In this document: positions 1 through 48,700 of the stretch, piece by piece
Numbering within the stretch: position 1 is the first letter of the stretch
Layout: each line of letters opens with the position of its first letter
Source of the DNA: Podarcis vaucheri
Taxonomy: Eukaryota
NCBI GenBank assembly: GCA_965113315.1
Contig: OZ220363.1
Strand: one strand, 5' to 3'
DNA length: 64,000 nucleotides
Position numbers and translations under genes: made by a program
The notes under the pieces: model-generated
The model's database searches: none
Seen by the model: the letters and a program-made list of their open reading frames with translations, nothing else
Told to the model about the DNA's origin: nothing

Positions 1-124
1 ACCTGGCGTGGAGATCTCTGTAGGCGGCTGCCGCATCCTCCTCCCTCTTCTTGGATGCCAGTACCTCCGCGTTCAATTGGGTAACTGCCTGTTGCAGCGC
101 TGCAACTGTCTCTGCTTCCGTCAT
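1..124 (-). mobile_element. Start of gag-like ORF of the Gypsy element (MTEAETVAALQQAVTQLNAEVLASKKREEDAAAAYRDLHAR...), runs off the window
   Basis: Coiled-coil-like N-terminus about 100 nt downstream of LTR/PBS. Confidence 0.6.
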
Positions 125-234
125 CTCTGCTAACCATCGTGAGCTTGCTCCCAAACACCGATCCCCTCCTCCAGCTGCCTCTCTCTCCGCTGCGAGATAT
201 CAGGTGTCCGAAGCTTTTGGGAGACGGGTCTTAC

Positions 235-1033
235 TGTCAGAGCTGCCACCCAGTCCCAGCTCACATAGGACCAAGTCCGCCAGCGTTCACTTTATAAGAG
301 TCTTTATTAAGTTACAGGTTTCATTTCCGAACTGCAGCGTGCAGCTCTACACCTTCTGCCCTAGGTCGGCGAAGACCCGTCTGAGTCCCCGCCTCTTGCA
401 CACCAGCTTAATACCCTAGCCTTGCTCCACCTCCTTCGCCTCTCCCTACGTCTCTGGGTCCTTCTGCCCCCCTGGGCCTCCTCCTTTCTACTCTCCTCTG
501 ACGCTGACCCCCCTGATCCTTCTGCCTCCTTGCGGCGGGCTTTGGGACCTGGCTCACTCTCCGGGCTGCTTACTGCTCCAGCTTCCGCTGCATTTGAACT
601 TGGCGCGCGCGCCCAACTCTCTACTTTCCTCTTAACCGTTGCCTCGCTCTCTGAGGAGGGCGTGACCACCCCTGACTCGTGCCCTCCCTCCTGCTGACAG
701 CCTCCGGAACCCGATGCCTGGCTACCTTCCTCCCTGCTGCTCTCAGTCTTGAGCGTGGGTCCCGACTTCCAGCTGCTGCCGCCCTCAGTTATGAGCGTGG
801 GTCCCGACTTCCAGCTGCTACTCTCTGAATCTCCTCTGTTCCCTTCCTCCTGGGGTGTCCCCCCGGATCCCCCCCTTGCTCTGCTCACTGGGGCTCCCTT
901 TTGGGAGTCCTCTGACTCACTGCTTAGGCTTGGAGATCTCGGGTCGTCATCATCACTCATTTTCCCTTCGGATTCCTCCCCCTCGCTCTCTGCTTCCTCC
1001 CTTCTCTGCGTCTCTGCTCCTGAACCCCTGACA
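235..1033 (-). mobile_element. 5' LTR of a Ty3/Gypsy (Tf1/sushi-like) retrotransposon
   Basis: TGTCA...TGACA termini; TATTAA at 408-413 and AATAAA at 303-308 on the minus strand; PBS 2 nt downstream; gag-like ORF follows. Confidence 0.85.
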
Positions 1034-1495
1034 AGTACGAATTCTAGAGCACCTTGTAAGCCATTCAAAACTGTGAGATTGAACCCACCAGCGTGTGGTG
1101 TGCAGTGAAATGTTTCATAGGGAAACAGGGGCAGAGGTGCCAGCTTGTGAGGGCAATGGGGGGGTGACGTCACGGTGTCCCCGACGTTTGTGCGTGTGAG
1201 CATCGCAGCTCCCTAAGCCGGGCAGAAGCTTCCTGGACACTGGAAAGGAGATGCCAGGGCCCTGCTGCCTCCTTCCTAAAGCCAGGTGGGCTTTGGGAAG
1301 GTGGCGGGAGGGCTCTTGGACCATTTAGGCAATTAGCCTAGTCCCCCTAGTCAACTGACTGCACACCACTGGCACCCACTGCCCCTATCTCCCCAACTTC
1401 CATACACTGAGTGGGCCTGCAGGCACCACCAAGCCCACACATGAACAACTTGTATGCTGATAGCTCTCTCTGCATGAGAGAGGACCTAACTTTTT

Positions 1496-2710
1496 TTCCC
1501 CAGTACATTTTTATTCAAATTACACAAAGAAAATATACAAATAAACATACCGCTAAACATATCAGTATACATATAAGTACATATTTACATAATTTATTAT
1601 TTCCCTTCCCCAAATTATACAGAAGATCATAAAAAGAAAAAGAAAATCATAATATTTCGGGCTCTGCCGAGCCCTGGACTCCCCTCCACCCTTTTGGTAA
1701 GTATCAAATAAATTCCACAATCACGTATTTTGTTTTTATTCTTAAAAGTTAATCACTCACTGTTAGATTTATTCCAACCCCGCCAGTTTCCTCTACAAAT
1801 TGGTTCCGATATAATTCCAATATTTATTCCAATTTTTTTGAAATTTCTGTTCATCTTGGTCTCGTATTCTACCTGTTAGTCTAGCAAGCTCGGCATAGTT
1901 TACCATTTTGACCTGCCAATCCTTTATACTGGGTATGGTTTCCGTTTTCCAGTTTTGTGCCAACATAATTCTTGCAGCTGTGGTGTCGTAAAGAAATATG
2001 TTCTTATCTTCTTTTCTAATTTCTTTACCCATCATTCCTAGCAGAAAGGCTTCAGGTCTTTTGGGGAAAGTGTATTTAAGTATTTTTTTAAGCTCGTTAT
2101 AAATTAGTTCCCAAAAGCCTTTCACTTTATTACATGACCACCACATGTGATAAAAGTCGCCTTCTGCTTCACCACATTTCCAACATCTTTTATTCTTTAA
2201 CCTATACATTTTAGCCAATTTCACCGGCGTGTGATACCACCTATATATCATTTTCCAGATATTTTCCCTCAGTGCCATACACGCCGTAAACTTTATACTA
2301 CTGTTCCACAGTTCCTCCCACCATTCAAAGTCAAGATTATGGCCGATGTCTATTGCCCATTTAATCATTGCCTCCTTCACGTCCTCGTCTTTTGTGTACC
2401 ACTCCAGTAGCATATCATATATCCTAGACAATATTTTATTTTTACCTTCAACTACCTCCACGTGGAACTTAGGTTTTTTGTCTTCAAAGCCCAGTTTCTT
2501 TTTATCTTCTTTTAACAAATCATTCACCTGGTGGTATTGCAACCAGCCAGTGAATAAGTTTTTTATCTCTTCGTAGGGTCTAAGTTTCTTCCCTTGTTCT
2601 GTTTTAGTTATAAGTTCTTCATAGGTGGCATTCTTCTCTTCCATATTTGTTTTCCTAATCGTTAACACCTCTAATGGTGAGATCCACCAGGGAGTCTTCC
2701 TTTCCAGGAG
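1496..2710 (-). mobile_element. 5'-truncated L1-clade LINE (ORF2 C-terminus plus 3'UTR)
   Basis: ORF 1793-2668 with CWKC...HMWWSC Cys/His motif; TSD ATGAGAGAGGACCTAACTTTTT at 1474-1495 and 2711-2732. Confidence 0.9.
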
Positions 2711-3396
2711 ATGAGAGAGGACCTAACTTTTTGCAGGGTTCCCAAGCACACAGACGTATGAAGGTGCTTTATACCAAATTAAATAATTGGTCCATCTAGT
2801 TCATTATTATGAGCACTAACAGACACCAGCTTTCATTTTTTAAAAACAAACCTTTTTAAAAGGTTTGAAAAGCACTTAGCAATAAGTCTCAAGGAGAAAT
2901 TGGAAATGTTGAGGATGAAAATGGCTTACAGCTTCTCTGCACTTTGCCTTGACTACGGATCCTCTATTAAGTTCCCTTTTGGCAATATGAGCTGCTAGTT
3001 TTACAGTCACAGCAGGTAGAGGTCATGGGAGCGCTGTGTAGCTTTGCCATCAGTGGTATCACAGGCACATTCCACTATGAGTTTGTGTAACACACACAGC
3101 ATTTATTCCATAGGTGGTCCTGCTAGAAAGGGAGGAGATCATACTTCTTACAACAATATACTTATGATATGTAGGTAGAAACTAGATTCCTCAAAACAAT
3201 GGGCAACATGCCAGATTACTTGCACTATAATATTCCTGAGGGATATTAGATAATATATTGTTAGCTGAGATGTTGACCCCACATAACTGTATGTTATACT
3301 CACATATTAAGAGCCCTGGAATGATTATATGAAAAGATTCAATCAGGTATAATGACAAAGTTAGGGCATGCAATAAAAACATACATTGTCTGGTAC

Positions 3397-5146: not shown

Positions 5147-5826
5147 TAATAATAATAATTTTTATTTATACCCTGCCCTCCCCAGCCAAGGCCGGGCTCA
5201 GAGCGGCTTACAAGCAATAATAAAAACAAGTTTAATGATTACAACTTAAAAACAAAATTAAAATACAACATTAAAATATTGAAACATTAAAATATTAAAA
5301 TGTAGCCTCCTCGCAGGAGGAGAAGGAAAAGAAAAAAGAAAGAGAGGGAGGGAATCAAATTGGCTCCAAGCCAAAGGCCAGGCGGAACAATTCTGTCTTA
5401 CAGGCCCTGCAGGAAGAAATCAGATCCTGCAGGGCCCAGGTCTCATGAGGCAGAGCGTTCCACCAGGCCGGAGCCAGAGTTGAAAAGGCCCTGGCTCTGG
5501 TTGAAGCCAATCTAACTTCCTTAGGGCCCGGGACCACTAGGGTGTTGCTATTTATGGACCTTGAGGCTCTCCGTGGGGCATACCGGGAGAGGCAGTCCCG
5601 TAGGTACGAGGGTCCTAGGCTGTGAAGGGCTTTAAAGGTCAAAACCAGCACCTTAAATCTGACCCTGTACTCCACCGGGAGCCAGTGCAGCTGGAAAAGC
5701 ACTGGGTGAATATGCTTCCATGGGGGAGACCCCGTGAGGAGCCTCGCTGCAGCATTCTGCACCCACTGGAGTTTCTGGGACAGCTTCAAGGGCAGCCCCG
5801 CGTAGAGCGAATTACGGTAGTCAAGC
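5110..5826 (-). mobile_element. L2-clade LINE 3' fragment with (TTA)n tail
   Basis: LDYRNSLYAGLP...QNAAARLL...LHWLPV motif; (AAT)n at 5111-5158. Confidence 0.88.
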
Positions 5827-6335: not shown

Positions 6336-6419
6336 CTTTCCTGCTTGGCAGGGGGTTGGACTCGATGGCCCTTGTGGTCTCTTCCAACTCTATGATTCTA
6401 TGATTCTATGATTCTATGA
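6336..6419 (+). mobile_element. CR1 LINE 3' end with (ATTCTATG)n tail
   Basis: GGGGTTGGACTCGATG...TTCCAACTCTATG followed by octamer repeats. Confidence 0.85.
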
Positions 6420-6522
6420 CCTCTTTGTTCTGACCTTTGACACCTGACATGCGTGTTGCCAGGGCTCACCCTTTTGTTGTGAGTTTAACCTGTTTTAACT
6501 GTTTTTAATTCTGGGTTTTAGA

Positions 6523-8220: not shown

Positions 8221-8661
8221 ATATACCTACGGGACCGCCCCTCCTGGTATGCTCCACGGAGGACCTTAAGGTCCATATATAGCAACACCCTAGAAGTCCC
8301 GGGCCCTAAGGAAGTTAGATTAGCCTCAACCAGAGCCAGGGCCTTCTCAACACTGGCTCCGGCCTGGTGGAACTCTCTGTCTCATGAGACCAGAGCCCTG
8401 TGGGATCTGATTTCTTTCCGCAGGTCCTGTAAGACAGATTTGTTCCACCTGGCCTTTGGCTTAGAATCAGTTTGATTCCCTCCCCCTCTTTCTTTTTCCT
8501 TTCTCCTCCTGTGAAGAGGCTGCATCGTAATGTTTTAATGTTGTATCTTAATCTTTTAAATTGTATTTTAATCAACTTGTTTATATTATTGGTTGTTAGC
8601 CACCCTGAGCCCGATCTTGGCTGGGGAGGGCGGGGTATAAATAAAAAATTATTATTATTAT
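8221..8661 (+). mobile_element. L2-clade LINE 3' fragment, same family as 5110-5826
   Basis: Reverse-complement similarity to about 5160-5610; (TTA)n tail. Confidence 0.85.
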
Positions 8662-14340: not shown

Positions 14341-14494
14341 TTCCTGATTGGCAGGGGGTTGGACTCGATGGCCCTTGTGGTCTCTTCCAACTCTATGATT
14401 CTATGATTCTATGATTCTATGATTCTATGATTCTATGATTCTATGATTCTATGATTCTATGATTCTATGATTCTATGATTCTATGATTCTATGA
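14341..14494 (+). mobile_element. CR1 3' end with expanded (ATTCTATG) array, about 13 copies
   Basis: Same 3' sequence as 6336-6419. Confidence 0.88.
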
Positions 14495-14867
14495 CTAAGA
14501 CTCCCATCATCCTTTGCATTAGTCCTGCTGGCTGTGGCTGGTGGGAGTCAATCTACATCTCGAGGTCCACAGCCTCCATATACCTGATTTAAGTGCTTGA
14601 AGGACAAGTAAAGATAAGAAGCAAGGCATCTCCATTTTTAGATTTCTTACAGTGAAAGTCCTAAGGATGTTAGCTCAGAAGTGAGGCCTGCTGAGTTTAA
14701 TAATATGACTTGCTCTCTCTAATAAATGTGTACAGGATAGTAACCTTCATCTTTTTGGGGGTTGAACTCCACTGACCTGCCAATCATCCTACTCTGCAAA
14801 GGAAAAGGCTTGATGATGTACTAGGAGGAGGAAGCCATACATTGCTGGTAAAAGCAGGCAAGGGATC

Positions 14868-15100: not shown

Positions 15101-18100
15101 CTGAAAATAAAAAAAACAAATATGCCCCCGGTTAAATCGTTTAGGAGATCTGGGAACATGTTCAGACCTCTTTCAATCATTTGATCATCCCCCCCTACTG
15201 TTACCTTGCCTTTGTTTTGTTTTGAGACAAAATATTGCACGTTGAAAGTGAAATGTACCTGGTTCTTTAAATTTCTGGAATGTATCATTCACAAGCGGGA
15301 AATGAAGCACTATGGGGGATTTGTTATTCTCCTCGTCCACAAATAGGTAACATTCTCTTGGATTTTTCTTGTCTTCCTCACTCAATGAAATCCTGGGAAA
15401 AGGAATTCCCTGCTCCAAGCAGTATTCACTGGTTTGTTCTATAGACTGTAGCACAAGAAATTCGGGTAACTTTAAAGGCTGTCCTTTAAATCAGCAGGCA
15501 CTAAATTACATAGCCATAATTAGGGCTGGGGCAGGATTTCAATTCACTCCACTATTTGGAGCTAAGGTCTCCAGTCCGCATTCCAATGGATCATGCTCAG
15601 ATCATAATGTAGACGTGTGGATTCAACTACATGTCTATGAACCTTTCTGAGTATGGTTCACTTTCTTTAAAAAAAACAACAACACCAAGATAGTTGCAGG
15701 GCTTTCTGCCTCTACATTTCTGTTTTTAAATTATTTCTAGCTGATTGGAGCGGCTACTCTTGCTGTGCTCATTGAAATGTTTTGAGTAAAAAGTCCCTGC
15801 CGTGACCCTGTGTAATTGCACAAGGAAAAGATGGTTGCCCCAATGTACTTATGGGGGCAGCCATCTTTTTTCTGTACAATGTCCCAATGAGGCTTCAAGC
15901 AGCTAGAAAATGTTTGTTAAAAGAAAAAGGAGCCAGAAAGCTCTCAGACCACATCGTAAGTGTGTGGGTCAATAACATTTTAAAAGAGTGCAGATTTTGC
16001 CTTTTAAAAAAACCCATGCAGACATTCATTGGAGACACAAACTGGATTCAGCCCATTTTGACCATCCTTTGCCACAATTCTAAGGGTATGTTTGAACGAT
16101 GATGCTGATAAACATTTAAAATAAAATAGCCTACAAGTGCCTAGTCACAGAGAAAGAAAGAGTGTGGGAGCTGAGCAACAATAAAGAAAAAAATACCTGG
16201 CTACTTTTTTAAATACTCCATCTAGAGGGTTGTTTAAGACTAATTTCTGCTCTACATTCTACAGAGAATTCTTTTTGAAGCACCTGATATAAGAACTGTT
16301 TTCTGCTGAAAATCCACAATTGTAGCTTTGTTCACAAGTCAAAAAGCAGATACACTTTTGTTCAGTTTCATGTTGATAAGTTTCTCCTCATTTGATTGAA
16401 ACTCAAGTGCCCATAGCTTGGAATGACTGGAATGAGCTTTACTTTTAATAGCTGTGTAGAACGGAAAATTTTGGCAAGCACAAGAGAAACAGTACCCATT
16501 GAAATTACGGTACATCTTCTGTGACATGTCTTGCCTTCCTTTGTTTCTAGGTCCTTAGCCATTACTACATTGCTTCGAAGGTATTTTGTCTGATGCAACG
16601 CACATATTATTTAGTGTATGATAGGCTTTGATTATGTTTGCTGCAGTCGGATGATGGTGATGATGGATATAAAATTGTACCATTTCCTATCTATCTATTT
16701 ATCTATCTATCTATTGATTGAATTTATATACAGCCCTATACCTGGGGATCTCAGGGCAGTTCACAGAATCAAAACCTTCAAGATTTTATGTAATCAACAC
16801 CCCACTCCCCCAAAGTGCCTATTACAACATAATGTGTATTGACAGCTGCAAATCAAAGCATCAGCAAAATACTAAACTGCACTTTTTTCACAATGGCAAG
16901 GGGTTTTTTTTTGGGAGGGAGGAGGAATCTGTATCGGGACCCTGGCATGGAGGGTAGGAGAGAGTTCCTCTTTCCTCTACTGTGAGCAAACTGTTTGCAG
17001 AAGAATACCTTAACACTAACCTGGAAGGGGTTGTCCAGAGAGTAATCAAATGATAAGATGACATCTACTTTCCGCTCCTTTCTCAAGAGCGGGGGACAGC
17101 TAGTATTGATGAAATATGCAGCATCAACCAGGCAGATACCTTCTTCTGATGGTGTCAGTTGATTAGGAAACTGGTCCAGTCGGCTGTCTGAAATGCAAAT
17201 TATACAATAAAAATCAATCTAGTAATCTAATCTGATTTTTATCATCCATTTTCTTTCACAAAATGTTTCAGATCTGGGACCCAAACCAATGGCTTCAAGT
17301 TATAAGTAAGGAAATTCTGACAAAACATCAGGAAGAACTTTCTAACAGTAAGAGCTGTTCGACTGTAGAATGGACTCCCTCAGAAGGTGGTAGACTCTTC
17401 TTCATCAGATGTTTCTAAGCAGAGGTTTGGTGGCCATCTGTCATGGGACTGGACTAGGAGACCCTTAGGGTCCCTTAAAGGTAAAGGTACCCCTGCCCGT
17501 ACGGGCCAGTCGTGTCCGACTCTAGGGTTGCGTGCTCATCTCGCTCTAGAGGCCGGGAGCCGGCGCCGTCCGAAGACACTTCCGGGTCACGTGGCCAGCG
17601 TGACAAAGCTGCAGCTGGCGAGCCAGCACCAGCGCAGCACACGGAAACACCGTTTACCTTCCCGCTATAAAGCGGTCCCTATTTATCTATTTGCACTTAA
17701 GAGTGCTTTCAAACTGCTAGGTGGGCAGGAGCTGGGACCGAACGATGGGAGCTCACCCCGCCGCGGGGATTCGAACTGCCAACCATACGATCGGCAAGTC
17801 CTAGGCACTGAGGTTTTACCCACAGCACCACCCATGTCCCTAGGGTCCCTTACAACTCTACATTTCCATGATTCTATAGTTCTATTTGAAGCCAGGCCTC
17901 TGCCTGAGCCTGGAACTTTCAGGGAGTCAGTCTATGGCTCCAAACACCATTCAGAATTCAGGGCTCTGCCACACATTACATGGCAGCACACTTGTGTTTA
18001 TCAGAACGTACATTCAAGTTGCTGTTCCAGCCAATCCCATCTCACTGATAAAGTTTGCTGTCTGACACATATGTTGGTGAACACACTTTTATCATGTTCA

Positions 18101-45479: not shown

Positions 45480-45703
45480 TCAAAGAGATGCTAATCCTCT
45501 TTTCTTCTTTCTTCTGCTTAAAGCCATACTTAATGCTTTAAAAACAGCTTCCTTGTTATTCAGTACATTATAGCGACTCAATTCTAGCAGTTTGTCAAAA
45601 TCTTCTGGTTCATAGGTGAAGTTTAGTGTCCAGTATGGCGAGTCTATTCCTCCAATCACAAAATCACCGAAGGATTTCTCCTCTTCTGATTCACGTTCTA
45701 TTC
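45480..45703 (-). CDS. PLA2G4F: PLA2G4F last coding exon (IERESEEEK...[11 protein letters not shown])
   Basis: 224 nt to TGA. Confidence 0.92.
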
Positions 45704-48700
45704 CTGCAGCCAGAGGAGAGGGAAAAGATACATTGCATGAATACCTTCCTTCAAACTTGTTCTGAGGCAGGAATGAGGGGTCTGTAGTCAAACAGTATCT
45801 GGAGGGCCACAACTCCCATTCTTCCTGACCACGGATCATGTTGACTGGGGCTAATTGGAGAATGAAGTTGACTGTATTTTACTATATACTGCATTTTACT
45901 ATACCACATTACAAACAAGCATAACTACTTAATCAACTGCAGGGGGGATAGTTGGCTAACCATGACAATTAAATTAACTGCTCCCTGTTCTCCCAAATTT
46001 CCAAGAAAGTGTGTCTTGCGTTATAAAAAACAACATTCATGTTTCATACAAACTGTGGACAACTGTGATTTCAAGGAGGAATGGGAACATTATACAAATC
46101 ATTTAAAAATACAACAAAAATGAACTGGACTCCTTGGCAGGTTTTGAATAAACATACACACATTGATTGTTGTTAACATGTTGGACAGATATGTAAGGAT
46201 ATATACAATTTTATAATATGCAGAGAAAATATGTGCAGCGAAATCAGGGAGAGGAGCTGAGGGAAGTCCTGGGCGGGAATAAAAAAGGGGGGTTATGTAG
46301 GTGATTATATGGCTTGATAATTTGTTGTGTGGAAATTGAGCAATAAAAAATATTTTAAAAAACCAACAACAACAACATTCATGTTTAAGATGTGTGTGTT
46401 TTTATTGGAAGTCCCAAGCAAAAATGATGATCCAAGTTCTTCATAATATGTCAGTATTGATGCTGTCCCACTAGCTAATTATAAACCACTGAAATATTAA
46501 ACCAGATCACCAGCATACGTGACAGAACTGGTTGGTAGGGTAGAGTCTTATTCATAAAGGAATTAGTAATTTTCTATTTAGATTTTCAAGTTCTACTCCT
46601 TAAAATAGACTGTTCTGAGGACACTCAGTTCATTTCCTCACCTTTTGCTGTTCTCCGGAACAGCTTAATGACCACACCAAAATCATGTTCAAAATGTTCA
46701 GTCAGTTCAACATTCTACTTGGGAATAACAGCTAGATACTTTAAAATGCAGGCTATGTAAGCTCACATGCTGACCTGGTGCTTTGTATTTGTGGAAGGTG
46801 TCATTAACGAGAGGGAAGTGAAGGACTATGGGAACCTTGGGATTCTCAGCATCCAAAAACATATAACATTCCTTGGGATTTTCTTTATCTTCCTTGGTGA
46901 AGATGATTTCTGGGAAAGGAATGTCCCGTTCTTTGCAGTACCTCTGAGTCAATTCTAAGACCTGAAGTATGAGAGGGACATAAAAAACAGTCAGGCAATT
47001 ATTAGCACCTTTTCCCTATGCTCATTTGCTTGAACTGGAACCATACTGGAAAAACTTCAGCTGAACTTGAACTAGTACCAAGCCAAGAAAACTTAACAAG
47101 CCAAAAAAAACCAACAACCTCAAGTTGACTTGCCAGGCTACAATGATTTGTCTCACCTCAAATGGCGCTTCCCAAGAATAATTGAATGATAGGATGACAT
47201 CAACATCTCTCTCTGGTTGCAGTACCAAGGGGAAGGGAGAATTGATGGAAAAGCCACCATCCACAAGGTACAGGCTTTCTTCCATTGGAGTCAACTTATT
47301 AGGGAAAGCGTCTAAATGAGTACCTGAAAAAAAGCAATACAGTATGCTAAAAATGGTGAAACAGAACCGCCAATACCTTCAATGGAAATTCAGTTTATAA
47401 TTGAATGTTTTATACTAAGAGAGGAAAAGCCATGTCTGTATTTGGCACCTGACTGGATTTTAGTGGAGATCTGACACTATTAACAGAGGATTTTCTCACT
47501 ACGCAGGTTTCATTTGCTAATCTATAAACTTTGGGGAAGGTCGGTTTTTATTCCAAAAAGAAATTTTACCTTTCCCGAGCACAAATTTATTGACTCTGAT
47601 GTAATCCTTGTGCAGGTACAATCCTTGCATGAAGTTGAAAGTTTCCCCAGCTGTAACACGAGACTTGAAGAAGTCCTGGAAAATTTGTATCAAGGGTCCG
47701 CCAGGTATAACCAGACGAGTCTTCAGCCTCATAGGATCCCGGAGATGGGATCGTCGACAGTCATCTACAATCATGAATCATGCGGTATATATATATATAT
47801 ATATGATCTACAATCTAGCCTGTGTCATCTTTAGGTTTTGAGAAAACAGATACTTCAATTAGCATGAACACTCTTTACACTTTGTGATCCCTTGTAACAA
47901 TGTGCACAAGATTTGGGTATTTCACTTTGCCATATATCTGCTGTTGAAATGTTCGTTTATATGCCACCTTTGTGCTGCCTCAATAAATAAAAACACACAA
48001 TAAATAAAATTATTTTAAATAACCAACATTAACAAAGGCAGCAGCGTTAACAGTTATTAAGAAGACCAGGTAAAACTGATATCAAGACTAAAAGAGTTAC
48101 GTTTGCTCCACCACATGTAAAATAATTTAAGGGTAAAGTTCAGATTTGGAGTTTATGTGTACCTCTCATGGTTTCACCACTTGTGAATAAGACAGCCATT
48201 TCTGACTTTCATATGTGTAAATACTATGCTACCATGTGATCTGCAACTGATAGCTCTTTATATACCATTCTCACCATTGACCAGTAAACATTCCTACAGT
48301 ATTACCAATGCTAATTGATAAGAAAAGTCACGGACACTGTGACCATGTGAAACTTACTGTTATGAGTTCAAACCTGTTGGCTTTAAGTACAGCACTCATC
48401 TGTGGAGGCATCTTTCTAGGCAGAGGCAGCCAATGTGGTGTCTCCCAGATGATGTTGGAGTGCAGTTCCCATCATTCCCGACCAATGGCCACACTGGCTG
48501 GGGCTGGTGGAAGCTGTAGTTCAATGACATCTGGAGTGCAGCACATTGCATAGGCAAACAATGTGCCAAGCTGTTATGAGCCACAGGAAGACAATGCACA
48601 CCGCCCACACTCCTATCCAAATTTGCCCCTCTTATCGGCTCAAACTTACATTCCGGGATCAATTGGAGAGGGTAGGGCTGGCTGTGTATATGGGAGGCAT

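Follow-up and report, generated by a model that had tools for sequence, protein, structure and literature searches.

The window, by which we mean the whole 64-kb stretch of DNA analyzed, carries at its left end the 5' part of a retrotransposon that is read on the minus strand. In the direction of transcription, the element begins with a 5' long terminal repeat (LTR) of 799 nt (235-1033, TGTCAG...CTGACA), followed by a 2-nt spacer (GT), a primer binding site (PBS, 222-232), and the first 41 codons of gag (2-124), which remain open to the window edge. The sequence-only reading had already placed the LTR end, the spacer, two complementary 11-mers, and a TATTAA box, and each of its coordinates was correct when re-checked. 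Support for the outer edge of the LTR comes from a drop in depth and an empty-site record, seen when we aligned contigs to window positions 1-1100 from four runs, each of a different organism and together 4 of the 11 listed. Between 1036 and 1037, depth in run X1 drops from about 1.36 million to 1,280, and element depth lies about four orders of magnitude above flank depth, a contrast that shows a high-copy repeat and gives no copy number. In run X10, one 350-nt record aligns from 1034 outward only, as an empty site would, which supports an LTR edge at 1033/1034. The adjoining flank reads AGTAC (1034-1038, plus strand) and is a candidate 5-bp target site duplication (TSD) whose partner copy would lie with the 3' end of the element, left of the window. 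The proposal that the element is young has only indirect support, from one other organism in which the site is empty. Elsewhere in the 64-kb window, no further copy of the element was found. One contig of run X1 fuses the LTR start (1033) to the LTR end (234) with 13 foreign letters between them, at a depth of 70, close to flank depth, as from two LTRs arranged head to tail by insertion directly beside another copy or at a two-LTR junction.

Compared to the fetched proteins, the predicted Gag start is 41% identical to the Gag N-terminus of P0050 (E 5.6e-6 in that set), a relative that carries Retrotrans_gag and Ty3_capsid domains and belongs to the same reverse transcriptase (RT) clade as the window family. 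Used as the sole query, the Gag N-terminus had no match among the longer proteins. The window copy also has an upstream, out-of-frame ATG (137-135, minus strand) that is open to the window edge; we rejected it as the gag start given that 93% of X1 depth has a different letter at 136.

The PBS, AAGACCCGTCT (222-232, minus strand), is not of the tRNA-complementary type, with TGG absent from the first 20 nt past the LTR. It is instead the exact complement of AGACGGGTCTT (372-382, minus strand), which lies inside the LTR and would form the RNA's first 11 nt. Exactly 11 nt pair, with no possible extension, and no longer perfect inverted repeat occurs in 1-1100. When the LTR was dinucleotide-shuffled, 3 of 3000 shuffles gave it a complement of at least 11 nt to a word starting 0-4 nt past it. 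The window contains no tRNA gene, positions 1-1500 have no Rfam match, and the exact U5/PBS pattern occurred in 0 stretches of metagenome and viral contigs. For Tf1, self-priming is established; in Tf1/sushi elements ranging from fungi to vertebrates, it has been inferred (PMC4600332, PMC6317226). The closest known systems are Tf1/Tf2 of S. pombe, Tj1, Tosmo1-3, and the Tf1/sushi group (GyDB Fungi/Vertebrates, with Amn-ichi, Amn-san, and Sushi-ichi in the V-clade), and the window element is like Tf1/sushi elements in that its PBS complements LTR sequence and no TGG PBS is present. The geometry for self-priming of this type, which the sequence-only reading had put forward, is strong, and the mechanism itself is already known.

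A transcription start at the first base of the 11-mer is predicted from a different set of signals. A TATA-like box, TATTAA (408-413, minus strand), has its first base 31 nt from 382 (413-382 = 31), as had been noted earlier. The sequence CTCA(+1)GA (380-385, minus strand) is a perfect match to the human initiator consensus BBCA+1BW (PMC5287114) and puts A+1 at 382. The sense strand of the LTR holds 13 matches to this human consensus and 2 TATA-like hexamers, and the only TATA/initiator pair spaced 26-34 nt apart is the one at 413/382. We thus predict that RNA polymerase II starts at A382.

The predicted fold of an RNA that begins at 382 contains the primer/PBS duplex with pair probabilities of 0.59-1.0, which fall to about 0.4 if the RNA starts at 400 and to 0 if it starts at 500. 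Next to this duplex, and stacked on it in the predicted fold, is a long R/U5 helix formed by an R arm (329-353, minus strand) and a partner arm comprising the end of U5 and the spacer, adjoining the PBS (233-256, minus strand). Its energy of -29.8 kcal/mol was reached by 1 of 1000 shuffles. Tf1 requires three duplexes, arranged as a "pretzel" (10.1101/2022.12.06.519325). A third, Tf1-like duplex on the 3' side of the PBS can be drawn at -8.4 kcal/mol and is indistinguishable from shuffles, 191 of 500 and 314 of 500 of which reached its level. Unlike in Tf1, two of the three duplexes, the central and the U5-side ones, exceed chance in the window element. An 8-bp helix (223-216/155-148) was rejected as the third duplex, having a pair probability of 0.07 or less.

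We considered that a host tRNA half or another small RNA could prime reverse transcription, with the 11-nt pairing being a structural helix and nothing else. There is precedent for this in Copia lineages, where half-tRNA priming exists, and the same source describes it from Copia only (PMC6317226), which argues against its use here. The 11-nt complement also starts exactly at the independently predicted +1, and a comparable geometry recurs in a control set of distant loci. From 81 such loci, 34 had a candidate repeat pair, 22 of these had resolved ends, and 17 had a TSD; all 17 TSD-bounded elements carry a self-complement of 8-11 nt after a 2-nt spacer, although 16 of them have one common PBS and hence are not independent. 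On this evidence we regard priming by a tRNA half or other small RNA as very unlikely, and we consider it very probable, by analogy with Tf1, that minus-strand synthesis is self-primed without a tRNA. Among the distant loci, the metagenomic Gypsy loci L010-L061 have the common PBS CTATAA(T/C)CTT and a self-complement of 8-11 nt that mostly lies 84-90 nt from the LTR end. Premature stops shorten the reading frames at metagenome loci, which makes figures for ORF overrun there unreliable.

The primer is not invariant within the family. In the aligned contigs, primer positions 7-8 (376 and 375) vary among copies, with the change A375C accounting for 76% of depth in X7, 9% in X10, and 1.3% in X1. 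Loose contig ends show two further primer variants, in which positions 1-6 and 9-11 were constant on reading by eye. Under self-priming, changes at primer positions 7-8 should have counterparts at 228 and 229. No PBS position appears among the 40 best-supported of the 98 variant rows. A third T>G place, which would fit 229, was counted in X7 alone, outside the 40 best rows; X10 has the primer variant at 9% without any third T>G place.

The self-priming signature described from the sequence alone was upheld, and that description had overlooked a reading frame that runs through the whole of U3 and the primer. This frame (361-1032, minus strand) comprises 223 codons and a TAG stop, opens at the second base of the LTR, spans U3 entirely, and takes in 22 nt at the start of R. 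Its stop codon (363-361) lies 9 nt past the primer, and an AATAAA polyadenylation signal (303-308, minus strand) follows 53 nt past the stop. The other two sense frames of the LTR contain 13 and 7 stops. We rejected chance as the cause of the open frame, given that an equally open frame in any sense frame arose in 14 of 3000 shuffles.

The translated frame corresponds to the end of the Pol polyprotein in related elements. Among 8000 longer candidate proteins scored, it had 4 matches, one a Logan protein and the other three Gypsy polyproteins of Podarcis muralis. It aligns with the extreme C-termini of P0003 and P0004 (E 2e-72 and 4e-72, 73-74% identity; 73% over the full length for P0004). P0004 is 1498 aa long with PR, RT, RH, IN, and SH3_Tf2-1 domains, and both proteins carry RT, RH, IN, and SH3_Tf2-1 as their length permits. 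In relatives, the junction between the polypurine tract (PPT) and the LTR reads GGFEGGMD/VRGSG, a peptide from the purine-rich PPT followed by the first LTR codons. Of the 18 fetched family proteins with this junction peptide, 13 reach a common terminal motif 209-218 residues further on, and 5 stop early or shift frame; most relatives are gene models, in which frameshifts could be concealed. P0006, which is free of introns and comes from a 1384-nt contig, has the tail up to the terminal motif at 49% identity. The window tail is 14 residues longer than in the Podarcis muralis copies owing to a 42-nt in-frame tandem duplication (734-817, minus strand; 38/42 identical, limits approximate). Altogether, about 360 residues follow the chromodomain in the integrase, and 209-223 of these are LTR-encoded, forming an acidic stretch with an arginine-rich end. 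We are highly confident, from these alignments, that Pol would read through the PPT, U3, the TATA box, the start site, and the primer and would stop in R. If the RNA starts at 382, we infer that only the 3' LTR copy of the frame could be translated.

The frame could also be a separate small gene, independent of Pol. An ATG at 960 opens a 200-aa frame (960-361, minus strand) within every LTR, this ATG recurs in several members of the family, and it is where the call of P0037 begins. However, the frame is already open at the second LTR base, and 18 records show it joined to integrase without a break through the PPT peptide, and an RNA starting at 382 would exclude the 5' U3. A separate gene is thus highly improbable, and we treat the frame as the C-terminal tail of Pol, or more specifically of its integrase. 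The gene model P0050 begins in the 5' LTR frame and is fused to Gag, which is probably an annotation artefact.

Variation among copies bears on whether the tail has a function as protein. Among the best 40 of 98 variant rows, 13 of 26 changes in the U3/R frame were synonymous compared to 6.8 expected (p = 0.008), none of the 26 created a stop compared to 0.9 expected, and the listed indels inside the U3 frame preserve it (a -3 change and a +1/-1 pair). The frame therefore looks selected for its amino acid sequence. The tail's last residues overlap the regulatory signals, with TATTAA supplying the V-L-S codons and the primer the codons S-D-G-S-S, so their conservation may reflect DNA-level constraint from the TATA box, initiator, and primer instead of protein function. 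Primer position 7 is a wobble base of the tail, and a change at position 8 alters a residue.

It is possible that self-priming is real and the tail sequence is a passenger, with the frame staying open for no other reason than to bring the stop close to the poly(A) site, or with a protease removing an inert tail. A stop near the poly(A) site gives a short 3' UTR and less nonsense-mediated decay, and the stop here lies 53 nt before AATAAA. Consistent with a passenger, the tail is of low complexity and mostly disordered by prediction (the AlphaFold model of P0006 has a mean pLDDT of 49), its coding strand is T-poor (66 of 651 nt), it diverges fast (49% identity between subfamilies), and it has no Pfam, PDB, or Atlas match. 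However, the synonymous excess points to amino acid constraint beyond the avoidance of stops, and squamate families whose tails differ in other respects again have an arginine-rich end. We therefore hold an inert tail to be doubtful and retain the reading of a Pol tail under selection.

The assignment of the element to the lizard Gypsy elements of the fungal/vertebrate chromovirus group, made in the sequence-only reading, finds support by proxy, through the Podarcis relatives. The window itself provides a TG...CA LTR, and the domain order of Ty3/Gypsy elements is present in P0004 and P0050, P0004 being tied to the window through the tail (73%) and P0050 through its Gag start (41%); the best PDB match is Ty3 Gag-Pol. 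A full-library search with P0006 returned 9 clusters at E 0.001, and all of the named ones are from Podarcis. With RT taken from relatives, we built an RT-RH tree by a quick method with midpoint rooting from 116 of 120 rows, the other 4 being too short. The window family and a second Podarcis family group together (SH-aLRT 100) inside a squamate clade (SH-aLRT 100). Elements of fish, amphibians, and fungi surround this clade, and the plant and algal rows lie outside. The probable membership in the Tf1/sushi group rests on placement in a tree that contains no named Tf1 or sushi-ichi sequence, on the chromodomain remnant, and on the PBS.

At its C-terminus, this family's integrase has a chromodomain-derived segment, which matches the Chromo-bearing sister P0058 at E 3e-14. 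Pfam Chromo was found in the sisters P0057, P0082, and P0090 and had no match to P0003-P0006 at E 0.01. Chromodomains that read methyl-lysine do so with three aromatic cage residues (PMC3605345). In the window family, the first and second of these are lost in all 7 rows and the third is kept, as F, in 1 of 7, so that the alignment shows loss of the methyl-lysine cage. Loss of the cage, together with a Pol that spans the whole of U3 and the primer, distinguishes the family from Tf1/sushi elements. Among the 120 rows, a chromodomain-like match was present in 78. Sequence beyond the chromodomain amounts to 114-363 residues in 11 of 12 squamate rows, compared to a median of 11 residues in the 66 non-squamate rows (57 within 60 residues, 9 longer). 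A similar junction peptide in the proteins of sister families leads us to infer that their tails are also LTR-encoded.

Where a function of the tail is to be sought, the candidate is its arginine-rich end, RRTQRRRERRRRWSKAR (415-465, minus strand), a putative nuclear-import or nucleosome-binding segment. In HMGN proteins, RRSARLSA mediates nucleosome binding (PMC12487698). Proteins of related squamate families, from Anolis and a third Podarcis family, end near this motif: P0090 near RRSARL, and P0082 and P0084 near RRSARI, the motif lying approximately 97-117 residues past a PPT-like junction peptide. It is present in 3 of the 26 proteins examined, all from other squamate families, and is absent from the window family, which has an arginine-rich, helix-like end without it. 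We offer only tentatively that the basic end of the tail serves as a nuclear import signal or nucleosome tether.

In plant CRM group A and some beet chromoviruses, the polyprotein frame is described as continuing into the 3' LTR, where it codes for a targeting part (PMC3059260, PMC3605345), and we grouped beet Beetle7 and Bingo1-4 and 7 with CRM group A as comparison systems. The window element is like CRM group A in that its Pol frame runs into the 3' LTR. In contrast, CRM elements have a tRNA-Met PBS and plant hosts, and plant elements lie outside the clade of the window family. The window element, unlike CRM, keeps a degenerate chromodomain upstream of the PPT, and its frame crosses the TATA box, the start site, and the self-primer. 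It works like CRM in 3' LTR coding alone and is not a CRM member. In the literature searched, which consisted mostly of the openings of abstracts, we found no vertebrate chromovirus described as having a Pol-coding U3, and older sushi/Amn-ichi work or Repbase may have one.

Collectively, our findings make it likely that the locus holds a self-priming lacertid Ty3/Gypsy chromovirus whose Pol tail is coded by U3. RNA polymerase II would start at A382, set by TATTAA at -31 and the initiator, and the first 11 nt of the RNA would fold back onto the PBS beside the long R/U5 helix. By analogy with Tf1, the RNA would then be cut after nucleotide 11, and the released piece would prime minus-strand synthesis without a tRNA. 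At the other end of the RNA, Pol, lacking a stop before the PPT, would continue through U3 into R, and the basic end of the resulting tail might take over nuclear import or nucleosome tethering from the cage-less chromodomain. A broader and still more speculative reading is that in squamate self-priming chromoviruses U3 has become an integrase extension with an arginine anchor, HMGN-like in some families, which in the lacertid family would replace the chromodomain as tether, in convergence with CRM.

If the proposed arrangement is true, about 60 nt would combine a TATA box, an initiator, the primer for reverse transcription, and protein code, and a coding U3 couples the evolution of the primer to the reading frame. 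In yeast Tf1, self-priming has been demonstrated; for vertebrates it has only been inferred, and a high-copy lizard family with a subfamily-variable primer makes vertebrate self-priming testable by covariation alone. The arrangement also suggests a route by which an integrase, as its chromodomain decays, could acquire a new targeting tail out of its own LTR, and such an exchange of chromodomain for tail is relevant to the choice of insertion sites by these elements in reptile genomes.

The remainder of the window contains several other features. Two frames on the minus strand (16853-17218 and 45480-45878) resemble what we take to be exons of cytosolic phospholipase A2 (PLA2G4) paralogues, and a Pfam scan gave no PLA2G4 confirmation for either. 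A 309-codon open frame (1793-2722, minus strand) has a weak zf-RVT match (E 0.006, below the cut-off) and is probably the 3' end of an L1/Tx1-type LINE ORF2. An inverted pair of LINE-like fragments lies at 5328-5606 and 8224-8502 (89%, 279 nt). Lastly, the octamer TCTATGAT forms arrays at 6365-6444 and 14368-14511, which are presumably typical of CR1 3' tails.
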